From a virus (Duplodnaviria > Caudoviricetes), in the IMG/VR virus record IMGVR_UViG_3300032272_000006, positions 1 through 64,000 of that record: DNA of 64,000 nucleotides. One strand, written 5' to 3'. The translations under genes and the position numbers were made by a program. This document shows, one piece after another, positions 5,176 to 60,053 of this stretch. Position 1 is the stretch's first letter. Every line of letters starts with the position of its first letter. Under the pieces are notes generated by a model that was given only the letters and a program-made list of their open reading frames with translations, ran no database searches and had not been told where the DNA came from.

Positions 5176-5589
5176 ATGAGGACCAGAGCGGAGCGTCGGT
5201 CACCTGACCCGCAACGAATTAACCCGGAGCCCGATATGCCCAAACACTTCGACATGATCACAGCCGGTGGATACTTTCCAGCATCCGGCAAGAACACGAT
5301 CCGCAAGGTAGCGGGCAAGTATGCCGGCATGAAGCCGGGCGACACCGTGACCATGACCTACTGCGACCGCGTCGAGAACGGTATTGCAGTCGATCAATTC
5401 GCGATTGAGGAACTGACCGTCGCAGCAGTCGCCCATGCCTCATTCAATCGCATCATTGCCCTGCACGTCGAAGAGAACCACGCGGTCGGGTGTGGGCACA
5501 GCGAGTCATCCATCCTCGACCTCCTGACTGATATCTACGACGTTCAGGACGGCGACGAGGAACAGTTTCTGGCGATCTATTTCGCCTGA
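5176..5589 (+). CDS. ASCH/PUA-like domain protein
   Basis: GKNTIRK...KPGDTV motif resembling ASCH GxKxxT/ExR; two possible starts (5176, 5236). Confidence 0.6.
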   Translation: MRTRAERRSPDPQRINPEPDMPKHFDMITAGGYFPASGKNTIRKVAGKYAGMKPGDTVTMTYCDRVENGIAVDQFAIEELTVAAVAHASFNRIIALHVEENHAVGCGHSESSILDLLTDIYDVQDGDEEQFLAIYFA

Positions 5590-5709: not shown

Positions 5710-5785
5710 CGAGGAGTAGCTCAGCAGGTAGAGCACTTGGTCGATAACCGAGCGGTCGCGGGTTCGAGTCCCGCCTCCTCAACCA
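5710..5785 (+). tRNA. tRNA-Ile(GAT), atypical (C1:A72 mismatch, C33)
   Basis: 76-nt cloverleaf: GCTC/GAGC D stem, CTTGG-TCGATAA-CCGAG anticodon arm, GCGGG-TTCGAGT-CCCGC T arm, encoded CCA. Confidence 0.9.
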
Positions 5786-53349: not shown

Positions 53350-53931
53350 ATGCTACCAATAATGGTACCTTTAGACAGAACAACACAATGGATGGAAACG
53401 CATGCTGGAAAGCAGCTGTTCCTTCCCGTCACAGAAGACATGATCGAGATCGAAGACATCGCCCACGCCCTTTCGATGCAGTGCCGCTACGCTGGTCACA
53501 CGAAGCAATTCTACTCGGTCGCGGAGCATTGCTGCCTCGTGTCGGATTGGGTGTGGCGCTCGATGAAAAATCATCCAGACTCTGAGCACCGAGTGAAGAC
53601 AGCCCTTGCCGCGCTCATGCACGATGCGTCCGAGGCGTACTTGGTCGACATTCCGAAACCCATCAAGCCCTACCTCACCAACTACGCCGAGCTGGAACAG
53701 CAGATCGAAGTCGTGGTCGCGGACAAGTACGGCTTTGAGTACCCATATGCGAAATTGATCAAAGAGGCGGACGTCCGTATACTGCTCGACGAGCGAGCAC
53801 AGCTCTTTGATTGGTCAGGACACGACTGGGAGTTGCCTGTGTCCGAGCCCCTCGGTGTCCATATCGACGCACTCTCGCCGCAACAGGCGAAGGCGCAATT
53901 TCTTGAAAGGTTCCACGACTATGCCAGCTAA
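53350..53931 (+). CDS. HD-domain 5'-deoxynucleotidase (YfdR-like)
   Basis: DIAHALS..CRY.GH...YSVAEH, MHDASEAY..D. Confidence 0.88.
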   Translation: MLPIMVPLDRTTQWMETHAGKQLFLPVTEDMIEIEDIAHALSMQCRYAGHTKQFYSVAEHCCLVSDWVWRSMKNHPDSEHRVKTALAALMHDASEAYLVDIPKPIKPYLTNYAELEQQIEVVVADKYGFEYPYAKLIKEADVRILLDERAQLFDWSGHDWELPVSEPLGVHIDALSPQQAKAQFLERFHDYAS

Positions 53932-54427
53932 AGAACATTTGATCACGCGGGAGATCGGCATCGACGCCGGTCACCGCGTTACCTACCACGGGTCGAAGTG
54001 TCGCAACATTCATGGGCACCGATACACGATCCAGGCGACCTGCGCCGGCCCGTTGTTCGATCAAGGCGAGCAGGAGGGCATGGTCCTCGACTTCGGCTTC
54101 CTCAAGGAAGAAATGATGGACGTCATTGATGGGGCCTGCGACCATGGCTTCATTATGTGGAACAAGGATCCTTTGCTCGGTACCTTCTTGAACATGGATC
54201 CCGCCACATTGACGCATGAGACGGAGGCGCATCGCATCACCGAGACGGCGGTCGGCAAGATGTATGTTGTCCCGTTCGTCCCGACGGCCGAGAACCTCGC
54301 GCGTCACTGGTTCGACCTACTCGCCAAGCGCGTCAACGAACGAACCGATGGGCAGGCGCGGATGTATCAGATCACGGTGTGGGAGACGCCAAATTGCTCT
54401 GCCCAATATCCCTCGGTGCCCACCTAG
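53921..54427 (+). CDS. queD: 6-carboxy-5,6,7,8-tetrahydropterin synthase
   Basis: DAGHR, CRNIHGHRY, LDFG, DHGF, PTAENLA, VWETP. Confidence 0.93.
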   Translation: MPAKEHLITREIGIDAGHRVTYHGSKCRNIHGHRYTIQATCAGPLFDQGEQEGMVLDFGFLKEEMMDVIDGACDHGFIMWNKDPLLGTFLNMDPATLTHETEAHRITETAVGKMYVVPFVPTAENLARHWFDLLAKRVNERTDGQARMYQITVWETPNCSAQYPSVPT

Positions 54428-54615: not shown

Positions 54616-55335
54616 ATGTATATCGTAACTCAGAATTCAAAAGGCGTTGCCGCAGTTTTCACCGCGAACGAAGACGAGGCAAACTTGTTCAACAACGAGC
54701 CGGAGCTTTTCGCGGACGACCTCAGCGGTTGGGTGATCAGCGAGGCGGCTGATCTCGAGGCAAACTTGTCCAAAGGTCAGATGGTCGCCATTTATAATTC
54801 ACTGGCGGGTGAGAATCTGGTCAAGTTCCAGAACAAGGCGATGGGCGCCCAGCGCACAATGCCCTTGGTCGAGCGCAACGCCAAGCCGTTCGATGAACTC
54901 GGTGCCAAGCCGGTTTCGACGGATGACGGCACGACCTTGGTCGATCATCTCGACCACATCGTTGTCCAAGACAAGCCGAAGTCGCGTGGTCGCTCGGACA
55001 AGGGCATCCACAACATCCCGCCCAAAGATAGGGCGGTGGCTTGCCGTGCTGGAACGAAGCAGCAGGCTCTCATTGACGCTCTCGCGAAGGGTGCGACGAT
55101 GGCCGACCTGCTCGACGCGACGTCCGCGAAGAACGGCGGCAAGGATTGGACGGAGGGTTCTGTCAAGTCGGGCTTCTACGAAGACGTCAACACCAAGAAG
55201 GGTTATGGCGTCCGGACGGAAGTTGTCGTCGAAGGCGATCCTTCGACCTACAAGTACTTCCTCGTGTACCCTGAAGGCGCCAGCGCACCGTTGGCACCTA
55301 CCTCGAAAAAGAAAGTGGAGGATACCGACTCCTAA
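54616..55335 (+). CDS. Putative winged-helix DNA-binding protein (DUF3489-like C-terminus)
   Basis: RAGTKQQALIDALAKGATMADL motif. Confidence 0.6.
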   Translation: MYIVTQNSKGVAAVFTANEDEANLFNNEPELFADDLSGWVISEAADLEANLSKGQMVAIYNSLAGENLVKFQNKAMGAQRTMPLVERNAKPFDELGAKPVSTDDGTTLVDHLDHIVVQDKPKSRGRSDKGIHNIPPKDRAVACRAGTKQQALIDALAKGATMADLLDATSAKNGGKDWTEGSVKSGFYEDVNTKKGYGVRTEVVVEGDPSTYKYFLVYPEGASAPLAPTSKKKVEDTDS

Positions 55336-55463: not shown

Positions 55464-56318
55464 ATGGCGAAAGCGACTGTTGTCCTTTCCGGAGGACAGG
55501 ATTCTACGACCTGCCTCTATTGGGCACTAAATCAAACCTTCGACGAAGTAGCCGCGGTCACGTTTGACTACGGTCAACGACACCGCACCGAGATCGACTC
55601 GGCAATCAAGATCGCTCGGATGGCAGGCATTGCCAAGCACGTCGTCCTCGAGCTGTCACCCGACACCCTGCGCTCAGATTCGCCTCTCACGTCAGGCAAC
55701 GACCTCGAGCAGTACGACGACCACGCATCCTTGCCCGGCGGTCTCGAGAAGACCTTCGTGCCGATGCGCAACCAAACCTTCCTGACAATCGCCGCAGCCG
55801 AGGCCTACCGCAACGGGCACCAAATGCTGATCACCGGCACCTGCGAAGAGGACTTCGGAGGCTATCCTGATTGCCGCCGCGTCTTCATCGACGCGCTCGA
55901 GGCTGCTTGCAACCTAGGCACGTTCACGGGCAAGGACGGGGCGCTCGGCAAGTTGACGATCTCCACGCCTCTCATGACGTTGACGAAGGCCCAGAGCGTT
56001 GACCTCGCGATCCGGCTCGGTTGGGATTGCTGGAAAGCACTTGCCTACAGTCATACGGCCTACGACGGCGCCTTCCCGCCCATCGGTCACGATCACGCTA
56101 CCTTGCTGCGAGCCAAAGGGTTCGAGGAGCACGGCACGCCTGACCCGCTGGTCATTCGCGCAATCGTCGAGGCCGGCATGGAAATCCCGGAGTCCGAAAA
56201 TTACGACGTAGTGTCGGGCCTCCTCAACGATCCTTCCTTCCACAACGAGAACGAGATGTCCTTGCTTCTCGCCGTATGGGAAGAGATGCTAAACGGGTTG
56301 GGTGCGACCGATGGTTGA
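55464..56318 (+). CDS. queC: 7-cyano-7-deazaguanine (preQ0) synthase
   Basis: SGGQDS, FDYGQRH, FVPMRN, YPDC; C-terminal Zn cysteines absent. Confidence 0.92.
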
Positions 56319-57273
56319 GAAAGTACGTCTCGACCACGCAACGGTCGAAGCCGCCGTCCAGAAGATGTTCAACAACATCGTTGACACGGTTCCCGGCTAC
56401 TCATTGAACGTCTACGGAATCCCGCGCGGCGGAATCCCTATCGCGTACCTGTTCAAATCCATTTGCGAGAAGACATGCAAGTTCGCCGTCTCGGTCGTCG
56501 ATGATCCCACCGAAGCAGATATCTTCGTGGACGACATCTACGACACAGGCAAGACCGCTAAACGGTACGCCGACGAGTATGGCAAGCCTGTGTTCTGGGC
56601 GTTCGACAAAGCGCACGAGGAGGGCCCCGACCTATTTGGAATGAAGGTGCCCAAAGACAAATGGATTGTCTTCCCTTGGGAGGTGTCCGACGACCACGAA
56701 GAGGCCGGCGAGGATACGGTCACCCGCATGCTATCAAGGATAGGAGAAGACCCTAATCGTGAAGGCCTTTTGGAAACACCTGCTCGCGTTGTTAAAGCGT
56801 GGAATACATGGTTCGGCGGTTATGGTGTGGAACCAAGCTCTGTTCTCAAAGTATTCAAGGATGGCTCGGAAGGCGTTGACGAGATGGTGCTGGAAACCGA
56901 TATACCGGTTTACTCGCACTGCGAGCACCACCTTGCTCCTATATTCGGCGTTGCTCATGTCGGGTATATTCCTAATGGGGGCGTTGTTGGGCTTTCTAAG
57001 CTTGTGCGCCTTGTTGACGTGTTCGCGCGTCGTCTGCAGGTGCAAGAGCGCCTTACCAACCAGATCGCGGACGCACTCCAAGAAGAGTTGGGTGCGCTTG
57101 GTGTGGGAGTTGTCCTGCAGTGCCGTCACTTCTGCATGGAATCGCGCGGCGTTAAATCGTCGGGCGTGATCACGACCACGTCCGCCTTACGCGGTGCGCT
57201 CAAAGACGAGCACGACGCCCGGGCGGAATTTCTTTCCCTGATCAACATGACTCGAAAAGGTGGACCATTATGA
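56311..57273 (+). CDS. folE: Phosphoribosyltransferase - GTP cyclohydrolase I fusion
   Basis: N: [23 protein letters not shown]; C: [36 protein letters not shown]. Confidence 0.92.
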
Positions 57274-58073
57274 CCGAGAAGCTTTCCGAGACGAAAGGTC
57301 TTAAGAAGCTAGGCAGCGCTACCGAGTACGTCTATGACGGCGCGGACAAGGAGCTCCTCGAACGCTTCCCGAACCCTTTGAAGAAAGGGCCGGGTGTAGG
57401 ATCAGTCGAGATCGTCGCTCCGGAGTTCACGTCCCTTTGCCCACTGACGGGACAGCCCGACTTCGCCACCATCGTCGTCGAGTACGTCCCGCGGACGTGG
57501 TGCGTTGAGTCGAAGGCTTGGAAAATGTATCTCGGGTCCTTCCGTAACTTCGGCGAGTTCCACGAGTCCTGCGTCCGTCGAATAGCGAATGACTTGATCG
57601 AATTGCTCGATCCTCACTTCCTCAAGATCGAGGGCCAGTTCACGCCGCGAGGTGGTATACCGTTCTGGCCTACTGTCGAGTACACGCGCCCAGAAATCGC
57701 TTTCGAGTTCAAAGAGACGCCCGGCGTCCTCGAAGACAAAAATGTCTTTTTCCTCGGTGAGTCGACTTTCGAGAAATGCGAACACTCCAAGACCAGTGAC
57801 TGCCTCCTTGCACGCCAAGGCGTATTGTTGGGCACAGCCGAAGTCGCCGAGATCGAGGTTGGCTTGTTTGACGAGATGGCTCGCAAGTACGCGGCCGGGA
57901 ACTACGCTGTTGCTGATCGGGCACGCCTCAAGGAGTTCCTGGAGGAGACGACCGAGTACGCAATTGACGACGAGACGGTGGTCACCGTCGTGTGGTTCAA
58001 GAACGTTACCATCTTCGAGGAGGCTCAGGAGCTCGGCGACGCGTCTAGCATCGTTCCTCTGCATAAGGACTGA
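57270..58073 (+). CDS. queF: preQ0 reductase (type I QueF) with C-terminal ASCH-like extension
   Basis: [21 protein letters not shown] QueF motif, FHE, TPRGG; about 125-aa extension. Confidence 0.9.
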
Positions 58074-58077
58074 TCCC

Positions 58078-58737
58078 ATGGCAATGGTCGACTCGCTCGA
58101 CAAGATTATTTCTATCTACGTCGCCTGCGTTGCGGCGGAGTCGTTCGAGTATAAGGGCAAGGTTTACAATCCCAAGCCCCTGCAGGTGTCGCCTTTGATT
58201 TTCAGGGGCTTCACTTGCCCGGCTGGGTGTGGTGGATGCTGCCCACGATTCTCACTCGACTATTTGCCTTACGAGGACCTTCCTGATCTCGATTTGCAGC
58301 CGCGAGTTATAGAGGTGATCACGACAAACGGCGTCCAAGAAGTCAAGATCCTGTCCGACAAGCAGGACGACCACAAGAATCACCACTGCCGCAACCTCAA
58401 CTTGGATGACGGGCGGTGCGGTATTCACGGTCGGCAGCCGTTCTCGTGCGACTTCGAATTGATCCGGTTTCTCGAGTTCGCTCCTACCGAGGTCAGAGAT
58501 GCGCGGAGCGTCGTCACCCAGAAGTTATTCGGGCGAGGATGGGCGATGCTTCGAGTTGATGGAGAGCGAGGCGCTCTGTGCGAGATGACACCGGCGGACG
58601 CTCATACCCAGGCCGAGACTCTGCGGAAACTTCGCCGCCTTCAAGAATGGTCGGCACATTTTGGAATCCGTACTAAACTCGGGACGATTATGGAATGGGT
58701 CGCTTCGGGCCCGCACAACGAACCACTGGTAGTATAG
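58078..58737 (+). CDS. Cys-rich CxxxCxxCC protein, candidate dPreQ1 methyltransferase (DpdM-like)
   Basis: CPAGCGGCC and C-x9-C-x9-C clusters; lies between queF and dpdA. Confidence 0.6.
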   Translation: MAMVDSLDKIISIYVACVAAESFEYKGKVYNPKPLQVSPLIFRGFTCPAGCGGCCPRFSLDYLPYEDLPDLDLQPRVIEVITTNGVQEVKILSDKQDDHKNHHCRNLNLDDGRCGIHGRQPFSCDFELIRFLEFAPTEVRDARSVVTQKLFGRGWAMLRVDGERGALCEMTPADAHTQAETLRKLRRLQEWSAHFGIRTKLGTIMEWVASGPHNEPLVV

Positions 58738-58746
58738 GAGGGCGCT

Positions 58747-58983
58747 ATGTTTGGTGCAGTCAAAGAAAAGATTGAGGAGCGCAAGCGAGTGCTGGCGCAT
58801 CTCATGACTTCACTCGAGAAGTGGAGAGCGTCTGACCGTTTAAACGCGGAGCCTGGCACGCCTCGAAGTCACCTTCTGACAGACGAGGAAAAGGAACTCG
58901 CCCACGCCTACGATCTGCTCCAGAACTTAATTGGGCAGGTCCAGAAAGAGAAGCCCGGCGGGAACGTAGACATTTCCTGCTGA
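58747..58983 (+). CDS. Small helical hypothetical protein
   Basis: GGAGG RBS. Confidence 0.7.
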   Translation: MFGAVKEKIEERKRVLAHLMTSLEKWRASDRLNAEPGTPRSHLLTDEEKELAHAYDLLQNLIGQVQKEKPGGNVDISC

Positions 58984-59012: not shown

Positions 59013-60053
59013 ATGTTCTTCTATATGAGCGGCACGCCCCGCAACGACGTTCTGCAACGCCAGGAAAATAGCCTTTGCTCGCATCGCCTATTCTCACTTC
59101 ATGGTGACTACCAGCGAGCGGTTCACAAATGGCTTGACGACGTTCTGGAAGATCCTTCGCACCCCTACCCTCGTTCGATCATGCTCGATTCCGGCGCCTT
59201 CACGGCGTGGAACGCGGGCGGCGAGGTAACGGTGGACGAAGTGTTCGACTCCTACAGCCGGTTCGAGGAAAAGTGCGGCGACCTGTTCGATGAAATCTGG
59301 ATGGTCAACCTCGATAAGATCCCAGGCAAGCGAGGCGAAGATCCTACCGTCCAAGAGATCAACGATGCCTTGAGGATCTCGGATATCAACTACAAGAAAT
59401 TGGTCGACCGTTTCGGTGAACGAATCTTGCCGGTGTATCATCAAGGCGAGGATACAGGGCGGCTTCTCGAACTTGCTAGCATGGCAAAGTACATTTGTGT
59501 CTCGCCTCGAAATGACATGCCCGAGTTGAAACGAGCCAAGTGGGCGGGTGAGAAACACAAAGCCCTCGACAAGCACGCGCCTGGGACGATGACTCACGGT
59601 CTCGCGACGACGGGCAACAACATGCTACGAGACGTGAAGTGGACGTCCGTCGATTCCGCGGCCTGGATCCTTCACGCTGGTTTTGGTAAGGTTGACATTT
59701 TCGAAGGCGACCGGTATCGGAATTACTTCGTGTCGGATGATCCTCGCAAGGCCGGGTTGATGAACCAGCATTGGGGCGCCCAGATCAGCAACAACCCCGA
59801 GACAGGTGCTGTGGAAGTAGCCGTGCCCGAGGCGGTAGAGCGGGGTGGTAAATTGATTGGTCCTGGCATGCCTACGTCCCAGCGACTGCGCATCCGAGAA
59901 CGCATCGAGAAGTATGGCTTCAACACCGAGGAGATCGTCACAAACTCCCGGGCCCGGTCAATTGTCTGCATGGGCGAACTAGCTGACTATTGCCGCTGGG
60001 CAACAGAATACCAAAAACGAAAGACGCGGCAAGACGGCCTGGGTCTAGATTGA
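59013..60053 (+). CDS. dpdA: DNA 7-deazaguanine transglycosylase (DpdA, likely DpdA2-like)
   Basis: MLDSGAFTAW, NLDKIPG, PVYHQGE, THGL, SVDSAAW TGT-fold motifs; que context. Confidence 0.82.
   Translation: MFFYMSGTPRNDVLQRQENSLCSHRLFSLHGDYQRAVHKWLDDVLEDPSHPYPRSIMLDSGAFTAWNAGGEVTVDEVFDSYSRFEEKCGDLFDEIWMVNLDKIPGKRGEDPTVQEINDALRISDINYKKLVDRFGERILPVYHQGEDTGRLLELASMAKYICVSPRNDMPELKRAKWAGEKHKALDKHAPGTMTHGLATTGNNMLRDVKWTSVDSAAWILHAGFGKVDIFEGDRYRNYFVSDDPRKAGLMNQHWGAQISNNPETGAVEVAVPEAVERGGKLIGPGMPTSQRLRIRERIEKYGFNTEEIVTNSRARSIVCMGELADYCRWATEYQKRKTRQDGLGLD

Follow-up and report, generated by a model that had tools for sequence, protein, structure and literature searches.

The window analysed here, the first 64 kb of the 83,753-bp IMG/VR virus record IMGVR_UViG_3300032272_000006 (rated complete by CheckV), carries a gene in which the preQ1 synthase QueF runs on into a long C-terminal extension. 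This gene (57270..58073, + strand) is a single open reading frame (ORF) of 267 amino acids plus stop, and its start overlaps the stop codon of folE within the sequence ATGA. Residues 1-140 (57270..57689, +) constitute a unimodular, YkvM-type QueF domain. The 127 residues that follow C-terminally (141-267) comprise a predicted ASCH-like domain, of the PUA-like beta-barrel type, at residues 141-255 (57690..58034, +; net charge about -14), and the tail motif LGDASSI at residues 255-261 (58032..58052, +), in a segment predicted to be disordered. A first-pass annotation of this DNA had described a normal type I QueF of ~140 residues followed by a C-terminal extension, and the uninterrupted 267-codon frame, the QueF profile matches and the 127-residue remainder all bear that description out.

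The assignment of the front half to QueF draws on concordant profile and motif evidence. Pfam PF14489 (QueF) matches residues 63-141 with an E value of 4.4e-30 (104.2 bits against a cut-off of 27.3), TIGR03139, the equivalog model for unimodular preQ1 synthases, matches residues 27-140 (137.8 bits against a cut-off of 86.9), and residues 1-140 align end to end with Bacillus subtilis QueF (4F8B; E 1.6e-38). In that alignment the catalytic thioimide Cys57 is kept within [10 protein letters not shown], as are QPD, in the context SLCPxTGQPD, and the FHE (His-Glu) motif. The NADPH motif E(S/L)K(S/A)hK(L/Y)(Y/F/W), which tells QueF reductases from QueF-L (PMC10516641), occurs at residues 80-87 as ESKAWKMY, with Met at position 7 where the motif has Leu or Tyr. 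Since the Cys, NADPH and FHE motifs are intact, the front half is read as an ordinary type I QueF, apparently a functional NADPH-dependent reductase converting preQ0 to preQ1.

The C-terminal extension

The extension is a real, selected coding domain, and it is a rare one. It has no family match in Pfam, PHROGs or NCBIfam; a tblastn search of 50,697 phage records (E<=1) found nothing, nor does any isolated phage in those records or among the Nanhaivirus QueFs carry it, and a pattern scan of IMG/VR produced no relative. When 1.84 billion cluster representatives were searched with phmmer, one other cluster was recovered, likewise a QueF fusion, besides a fragment and low-complexity coiled-coil noise. 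A search with the QueF core identified at least eight independent metagenome proteins of 261-270 residues with the same extension (P0001-4, P0013-16), together with three more divergent ones in which a related extension is recognisable (P0088, P0099 and P0120). These fused homologues are continuous ORFs from independent assemblies of different samples. The ratio of nonsynonymous to synonymous substitution rates (dN/dS) is 0.14-0.26 in the extension, similar to the 0.06-0.29 of the QueF core, and purifying selection spans the junction as well. Because the ORF is continuous in independent proteins and selection on the extension is of this strength, the extension is not an artefact; nor does the alignment of its homologues contain a conserved internal start codon.

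At first reading such a fusion was not known to have been described. A full-text literature search for a fusion of QueF and ASCH gave nothing relevant, and neither of the two principal papers on phage 7-deazaguanines reports a fusion of QueF, although Gat-QueC fusions and the PUA domain carried by ArcS are treated there (PMC10516641, PMC6884629). The fusion is thus apparently undescribed; enzyme and pathway are known, and it is the architecture that appears to be new.

Structure prediction assigns the extension to the ASCH proteins. AlphaFold2 (AF2) run on the full-length protein as a single sequence gave an unusable model (predicted local distance difference test, pLDDT, 39). For the extension alone, with a 4-sequence alignment, it returned a model with pLDDT 76.7 and a predicted template modelling (TM) score of 0.69; its elements run beta-beta-alpha-beta-beta-alpha-alpha-beta, and the last 12 residues are disordered. 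The top ranks of a Foldseek search of the PDB with this model are all ASCH proteins, namely TTHA0113 (2DP9; E 1.7e-4), ZmASCH, EF3133, the Lactobacillus crispatus ASCH protein, PH0355 and YqfB, with a probability of 1.00 to ZmASCH, EF3133 and YqfB; other PUA-like domains rank below them (McrB-N, YTH, Lon-N and the N-terminal domain of ATP sulfurylase). An exhaustive comparison with VIA, which is independent of Foldseek and covered 48,161 chains, placed ZmASCH (Z 9.2), PH0355 (Z 9.2) and YqfB (Z 9.0) first, with 96-105 residues aligned, and thereafter only members of the PUA-like superfamily. Several annotated ASCH proteins also occur among the viral structures in BFVD that match the extension. 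Finally, an independent ESM Atlas model of the protein (pLDDT 0.80) has ASCH-bearing clusters as its nearest structural neighbours (TM 0.66-0.74). The two predictors and two aligners thus agree on a predicted ASCH-type PUA-like beta-barrel. The ASCH/PUA-like fold had been proposed by eye, with structure prediction and Foldseek named as the check, and the best matches of the models are indeed ASCH proteins. A degenerate second T-fold module, as would be expected of a bimodular QueF-like protein, was considered and rejected: no T-fold is found among the structural matches, and the QueF_N matches fall inside the core.

The ASCH fold does not appear to be accompanied by ASCH catalysis. The octapeptide GxKxx[E/T]xR is needed for activity in every tested ASCH enzyme, its Lys and Glu/Thr being essential, and the activity of YqfB depends on K21, T24, R26 and E74, with contributions from H70 and Y89; membership of the YqfB type is defined by conserved K21, T24, R26, D27, H70, E74 and Y89. 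At the alpha1/beta2 junction of the extension the octapeptide is not seen in alignments of 4 or 11 sequences, the segment being variable save for one Cys and one Leu. Counterparts of K21, T24, R26 and E74 were likewise not found by hhalign, in an alignment that is itself non-significant and that sets KYAAG-NY of the extension opposite KHAEQENM of YqfB, with E72 and E74 replaced. Most positions that do not vary among 11 homologues hold hydrophobic residues or Gly, and no polar constellation is kept. Conservation is highest in helix alpha2, [12 protein letters not shown], whose conserved pattern, E-M-A-R-K-Y-x-x-x-N-Y, is polar. Because the octapeptide and the acidic residues of YqfB are absent and the invariant positions are mostly hydrophobic or Gly, a YqfB-like hydrolase activity is unlikely on the sequence evidence.

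The extension has a net charge of -15 and an isoelectric point of 4.4, compared with a charge of -2 for the QueF core. Its only neutral-to-basic part, and the one best conserved, is alpha2-alpha3, with a charge of +1 to +3 in the majority of homologues. YqfB, an enzyme whose substrate is a free nucleoside, has an acidic charge too (-7). Since the domain is acidic overall, as YqfB is, and only alpha2-alpha3 is neutral or basic, a module that binds a small ligand or a protein is favoured over one that binds nucleic acid.

Acidic appendages are widespread among the close relatives of this QueF. Approximately 37 of the 120 nearest (about 30%) bear an appendage of at least 60 residues, in sizes of roughly 75, 85, 100 and 135 residues (for instance P0018-P0034, L005:6001-6699 and L006:6001-6645). 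The shorter appendages are interrelated by hhalign at 84-95%, and their relation to the ASCH-like form is weak (28%). Every variant is acidic, with net charges from -4 to -17. Half of the appendages, 18 in number and from 75 to 137 residues long, end in [LY]G[DN]A[ST]x[IV], at 7-14 residues from the C-terminus; the motif is confined to extended forms and is absent from plain QueFs. This tail peptide may be a short linear docking motif. In the six frames of the window, the QueF tail is the only copy of an LGDASxI-like peptide, so there is no evidence of other window proteins sharing it.

The modification module and a stand-alone protein

The fused gene lies in a replication/modification module whose order is kept among related loci: QueD, QueC, FolE, QueF, in some cases DpdM, a small gene, and DpdA. 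The module genes given here with coordinates are all on the + strand. QueD (PTPS; 53921..54427) is followed by a conserved protein of 239 residues (phrog_7790; 54616..55335) and by QueC (55464..56318). Wherever this module was seen, Pseudanabaena phage Pan1 and Dinoroseobacter phage R26L included, queD and queC are separated by a gene for the phrog_7790 protein, 211-239 residues long, which may be an uncharacterised component of the pathway.

FolE (56302..57273), translationally coupled to queF, consists of a GTP cyclohydrolase I domain (residues 138-314) preceded by an N-terminal domain of ~130 residues with a weak resemblance to phosphoribosyltransferases (PRT; Pribosyltran, E 0.0083). In related loci FolE occurs either in a long form of 311-323 residues or in a plain form of 184-190. 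The long, PRT-like form accompanies the ASCH-like QueF in four of the four loci that show both, and the short form is found with short appendages (L005, L006). This pairing may reflect shared ancestry, and the PRT-like domain may salvage guanine released by DpdA.

Immediately downstream of the fusion lies a DpdM homologue (58078..58737; PF03692, YkgJ/DUF3109), a proposed preQ1 N-methyltransferase in which the CxxxCxxCC motif reads CPAGCGGCC. Over 95-96% of its length it is 38% identical to the protein of Cellulophaga phage phiSM (E 3e-33) and 36% identical to that of Vibrio phage VH7D (E 4e-28). DpdM has been tied by experiment to 7-(methylamino)methyl-7-deazaguanine (PMC10516641). With a DpdM homologue in the module, the phage DNA is likely to contain mdPreQ1 (or dPreQ1), and of these the homologue predicts mdPreQ1 rather than plain dPreQ1. 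The window, L001 and L007 have DpdM; the contig of P0004, L005 and L006 lack it.

Between the DpdM homologue and dpdA the window encodes a small protein of 78 residues (58747..58983). The related loci examined (L001, L005-L008, Pan1 and R26L) all have a small gene of 57-78 codons directly ahead of dpdA, with sequences of at least two types, …LEKWR…AYDLLQ… and …VEAAF..RNA…. DpdA, the DNA guanine transglycosylase (59013..60053), matches phrog_887 (E 1.5e-46) and is 38% identical to the Nanhaivirus DpdA; a superfamily 1 helicase and an RNase T-like exonuclease follow 3' of it, with QueE and PolA further on. The same module order is found in the Nanhaivirus isolates Pan1, R26L and R5C, the last also a Dinoroseobacter phage, where QueF is a plain protein of 157 residues. 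A small gene between queF and dpdM of Pan1 was considered as a split form of the fusion and rejected, since what it encodes is the small protein common to these loci rather than an ASCH-like domain. As a separate observation, the radical S-adenosylmethionine gene in the QueE position of one related locus (L005:10646-11956; 436 residues) has Hint/intein-splicing matches and looks like an intein-containing QueE.

Far from this module, between the large terminase gene and a tRNA-Ile gene (GAT anticodon; 5710..5785, +) in the packaging region, the window encodes a second candidate ASCH-like protein, which stands alone. This 117-residue protein (5236..5589, +) most likely starts at the Met of MPKHFDM, in agreement with a database gene call and two homologues; the maximal ORF, from 5176, probably over-extends it. 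The tRNA gene lies 121 nt downstream. Both the protein and its tRNA neighbour had been reported at first reading and are present, with the start shifted to 5236. The protein is homologous to gp15 of phage PhiJL001 (37% identity, E 5e-14), and in BFVD the gp15 model ranks third among the viral structures that match the extension (E 6.1e-4, TM 0.58). By its ESM features, the stand-alone protein falls close to ASCH-bearing clusters (0.95). The profile of its family gave noise only against PDB sequences, and Pfam at E<=10 returned nothing relevant for the family or for gp15. By way of this indirect link through gp15 and of the ESM features, the extension and the stand-alone protein are probably both ASCH-like and may share a fold.

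The two had been proposed to be paralogs on the basis of an alignment by eye, and this claim is not supported, the resemblance being no better than chance. BLASTP of one against the other gives an E value of 52 over 3 residues, tblastn of the extension against the whole phage genome (E<=10) returns the self-match only, and hhalign assigns the pair probabilities of 0.06% and 0.75%. Against 500 shuffles, the z scores are -0.04 for Smith-Waterman and 1.08 for semi-global alignment. An origin of the pair by duplication within the genome is thus not demonstrable by sequence. The associated proposal, that catalytic positions are degenerate in the fused copy, survives, the extension being indeed without the ASCH catalytic or ligand motif. 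A contrast with an intact stand-alone copy is not borne out, because the stand-alone family keeps no canonical ASCH motif either. In that family, the Lys position of GKNTIRK is K/R/R in the homologues, and gp15 has F-M in place of both Glu of HVEENHA.

Possible roles of the extension

The structural description, an intact QueF joined to a non-catalytic ASCH-like domain and a tail motif, can be advanced with considerable confidence. What the domain does is a more tentative matter. As first suggested, it might act as a modified-base reader or a tailoring domain. We infer ligand or partner binding and channelling. The domain would have lost, or never had, the ASCH octapeptide and, because that octapeptide is absent, would most likely be a binding module rather than an enzyme. 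The retained region of the ASCH pocket would correspond to the conserved, locally basic alpha2-alpha3 and would bind a free ligand resembling a 7-deazapurine base or nucleoside (preQ0, preQ1 or guanine). The LGDASxI tail would dock on a partner within the modification module. Pocket and tail together would then couple the production of preQ1 to its insertion by DpdA and its methylation by DpdM, resulting in mdPreQ1 DNA. That the domain binds a free 7-deazapurine or guanine-like ligand, a module partner or both, and so couples preQ1 synthesis to DpdA and DpdM, is a tentative proposal that we would rate somewhat below an even chance. The explanation as a whole, an intact QueF with an acquired, lineage-specific, non-catalytic ASCH-type binding domain in an uncultured Nanhaivirus-like phage, is the best available and about evenly balanced between right and wrong.

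Several observations weigh against this explanation. The fold is predicted from a very shallow alignment of 4 sequences. The ASCH family PF04266 is not matched, either by hmmscan (E<=0.1) or in a six-frame search of the whole phage (E<=10), and a profile search of PDB sequences with the extension gave no ASCH chain. Some loci have the extension but no DpdM, which separates the appendage from methylation. Pan1, R26L and R5C run the same module with a plain 157-residue QueF, and the domain is therefore dispensable for the basic pathway. Lastly, P0014, P0016 and P0004 have a degenerate tail motif or none, though their neighbours are unchanged.

The competing explanation that survives best is that the appendage is purely structural or serves protein docking, either as an acidic spacer that displays LGDASxI or as an oligomerisation or solubility module of the QueF decamer, with no base pocket and a fold that is incidental. 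Appendages of 70-137 residues, partly unrelated in sequence, are swapped on closely related QueF cores; all of them are acidic, many share the tail motif only, and the invariant residues of the ASCH-like form are mostly core hydrophobics. However, the most conserved segment of the domain is the polar helix alpha2, which lines the ligand pocket in ASCH enzymes, and the tail motif has been lost in some members that keep the domain. On balance, we consider this explanation unlikely, while regarding it as the most serious of the alternatives.

A nucleic-acid reader is clearly less probable than such a docking module. In this scheme the domain would anchor QueF on DNA or flip dPreQ0 out, and reduction would take place on DNA after DpdA had inserted preQ0. 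There are analogues in QueF-L, which acts on preQ0-tRNA, and in the PUA domains of ArcTGT and ArcS. Recognition of modified bases in nucleic acids is common among PUA-like domains (ASCH, EVE, YTH, SRA), the extension has a locally basic stretch in alpha2-alpha3, and whether phage QueFs take the free base or DNA as substrate has been raised as a question (PMC6884629). The domain is, however, strongly acidic overall, at a net -15. The QueF core is a normal enzyme of the free-base type with its NADPH motif, and the phage QueFs tested so far reduce free preQ0, with the cognate DpdA inserting preQ1 (PMC10516641).

Still more doubtful is catalysis by the domain itself as a tailoring enzyme, for instance as an ASCH-type amidohydrolase whose substrate would be an acylated nucleobase or a 7-deazaguanine derivative. 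All 19 of the 19 ASCH proteins tested in one study are N4-acetylcytidine (ac4C) amidohydrolases, and the fold matches that of YqfB with a Z of 9.0; the essential Lys and Glu/Thr of the octapeptide are nevertheless absent, and the 11 homologues have no constellation of polar residues in common. That the fusion is an artefact of annotation or assembly, with two genes joined through a sequencing error or a lost stop codon, can be dismissed for practical purposes, as nothing favours it beyond the generic possibility, the uninterrupted ORF recurs in independent assemblies from different samples, and purifying selection acts across the junction and the extension, where no conserved internal start codon occurs.

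The modification of phage DNA with 7-deazaguanines is an active field, concerned with anti-restriction and with new nucleobases, and one of its questions is by what route the product of QueF reaches DpdA and whether preQ0 is reduced as the free base or within DNA. The present QueF, with its predicted fold that elsewhere serves to bind modified nucleobases, makes that question concrete and approachable by deletion. Further material comes from its relatives, whose acidic appendages replace one another and often have a tail peptide in common. The protein would also be one more case of an ASCH module that, without its catalytic residues, has been joined to an enzyme of another kind. A bolder version of the binding proposal, which we regard as improbable, is that this is the first module of the PUA superfamily dedicated to a 7-deazaguanine, either as a 'chaperone' for preQ0 or preQ1 base that passes the product of QueF straight to DpdA, or as a reader for dPreQ0 in DNA. 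If a chaperone or reader role proved true, substrate channelling in phage DNA hypermodification would be revealed, and the variable acidic appendages with LGDASxI would be a general means of docking within a metabolon for phage DNA modification. If the domain were merely a spacer or a solubility tag, it would be a minor architectural variant.

Relation to known systems

The QueF core belongs with the unimodular enzymes, among them B. subtilis YkvM (4F8B) and the QueFs of phages Pan1, vB_DshS-R26L, vB_DshS-R5C and Dp-1, with which it has in common the thioimide Cys, QPD, ESK(A)WK and FHE. It differs from the QueFs of isolated phages in its 127 additional C-terminal residues, which form a separate predicted domain, whereas the isolate proteins end after a tail of ~17 residues. 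The extension, for its part, is predicted to have the barrel and two helices, in the same topology, of ASCH proteins such as ZmASCH (5GUQ), PH0355 (2Z0T), YqfB (9KYF) and TTHA0113 (2DP9), all of PF04266. Unlike them, it has no hidden Markov model match, is without GxKxx[E/T]xR and the catalytic residues of YqfB, is highly acidic and is fused to a metabolic enzyme. Among phage proteins, PhiJL001 gp15, from a phage of alphaproteobacteria, is linked to both of the proteins discussed here, as a structural match to the extension and a sequence homologue of the stand-alone protein.

A precedent for a C-terminal domain of the PUA superfamily on an enzyme of the 7-deazaguanine pathway is given by archaeal ArcTGT and ArcS (PMC10516641, PMC6884629). 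Those are true tRNA-binding PUA domains attached to a transglycosylase or an amidotransferase, whereas the present case appears to combine an acidic, ASCH-like domain with the free-base reductase of a DNA-modifying phage.

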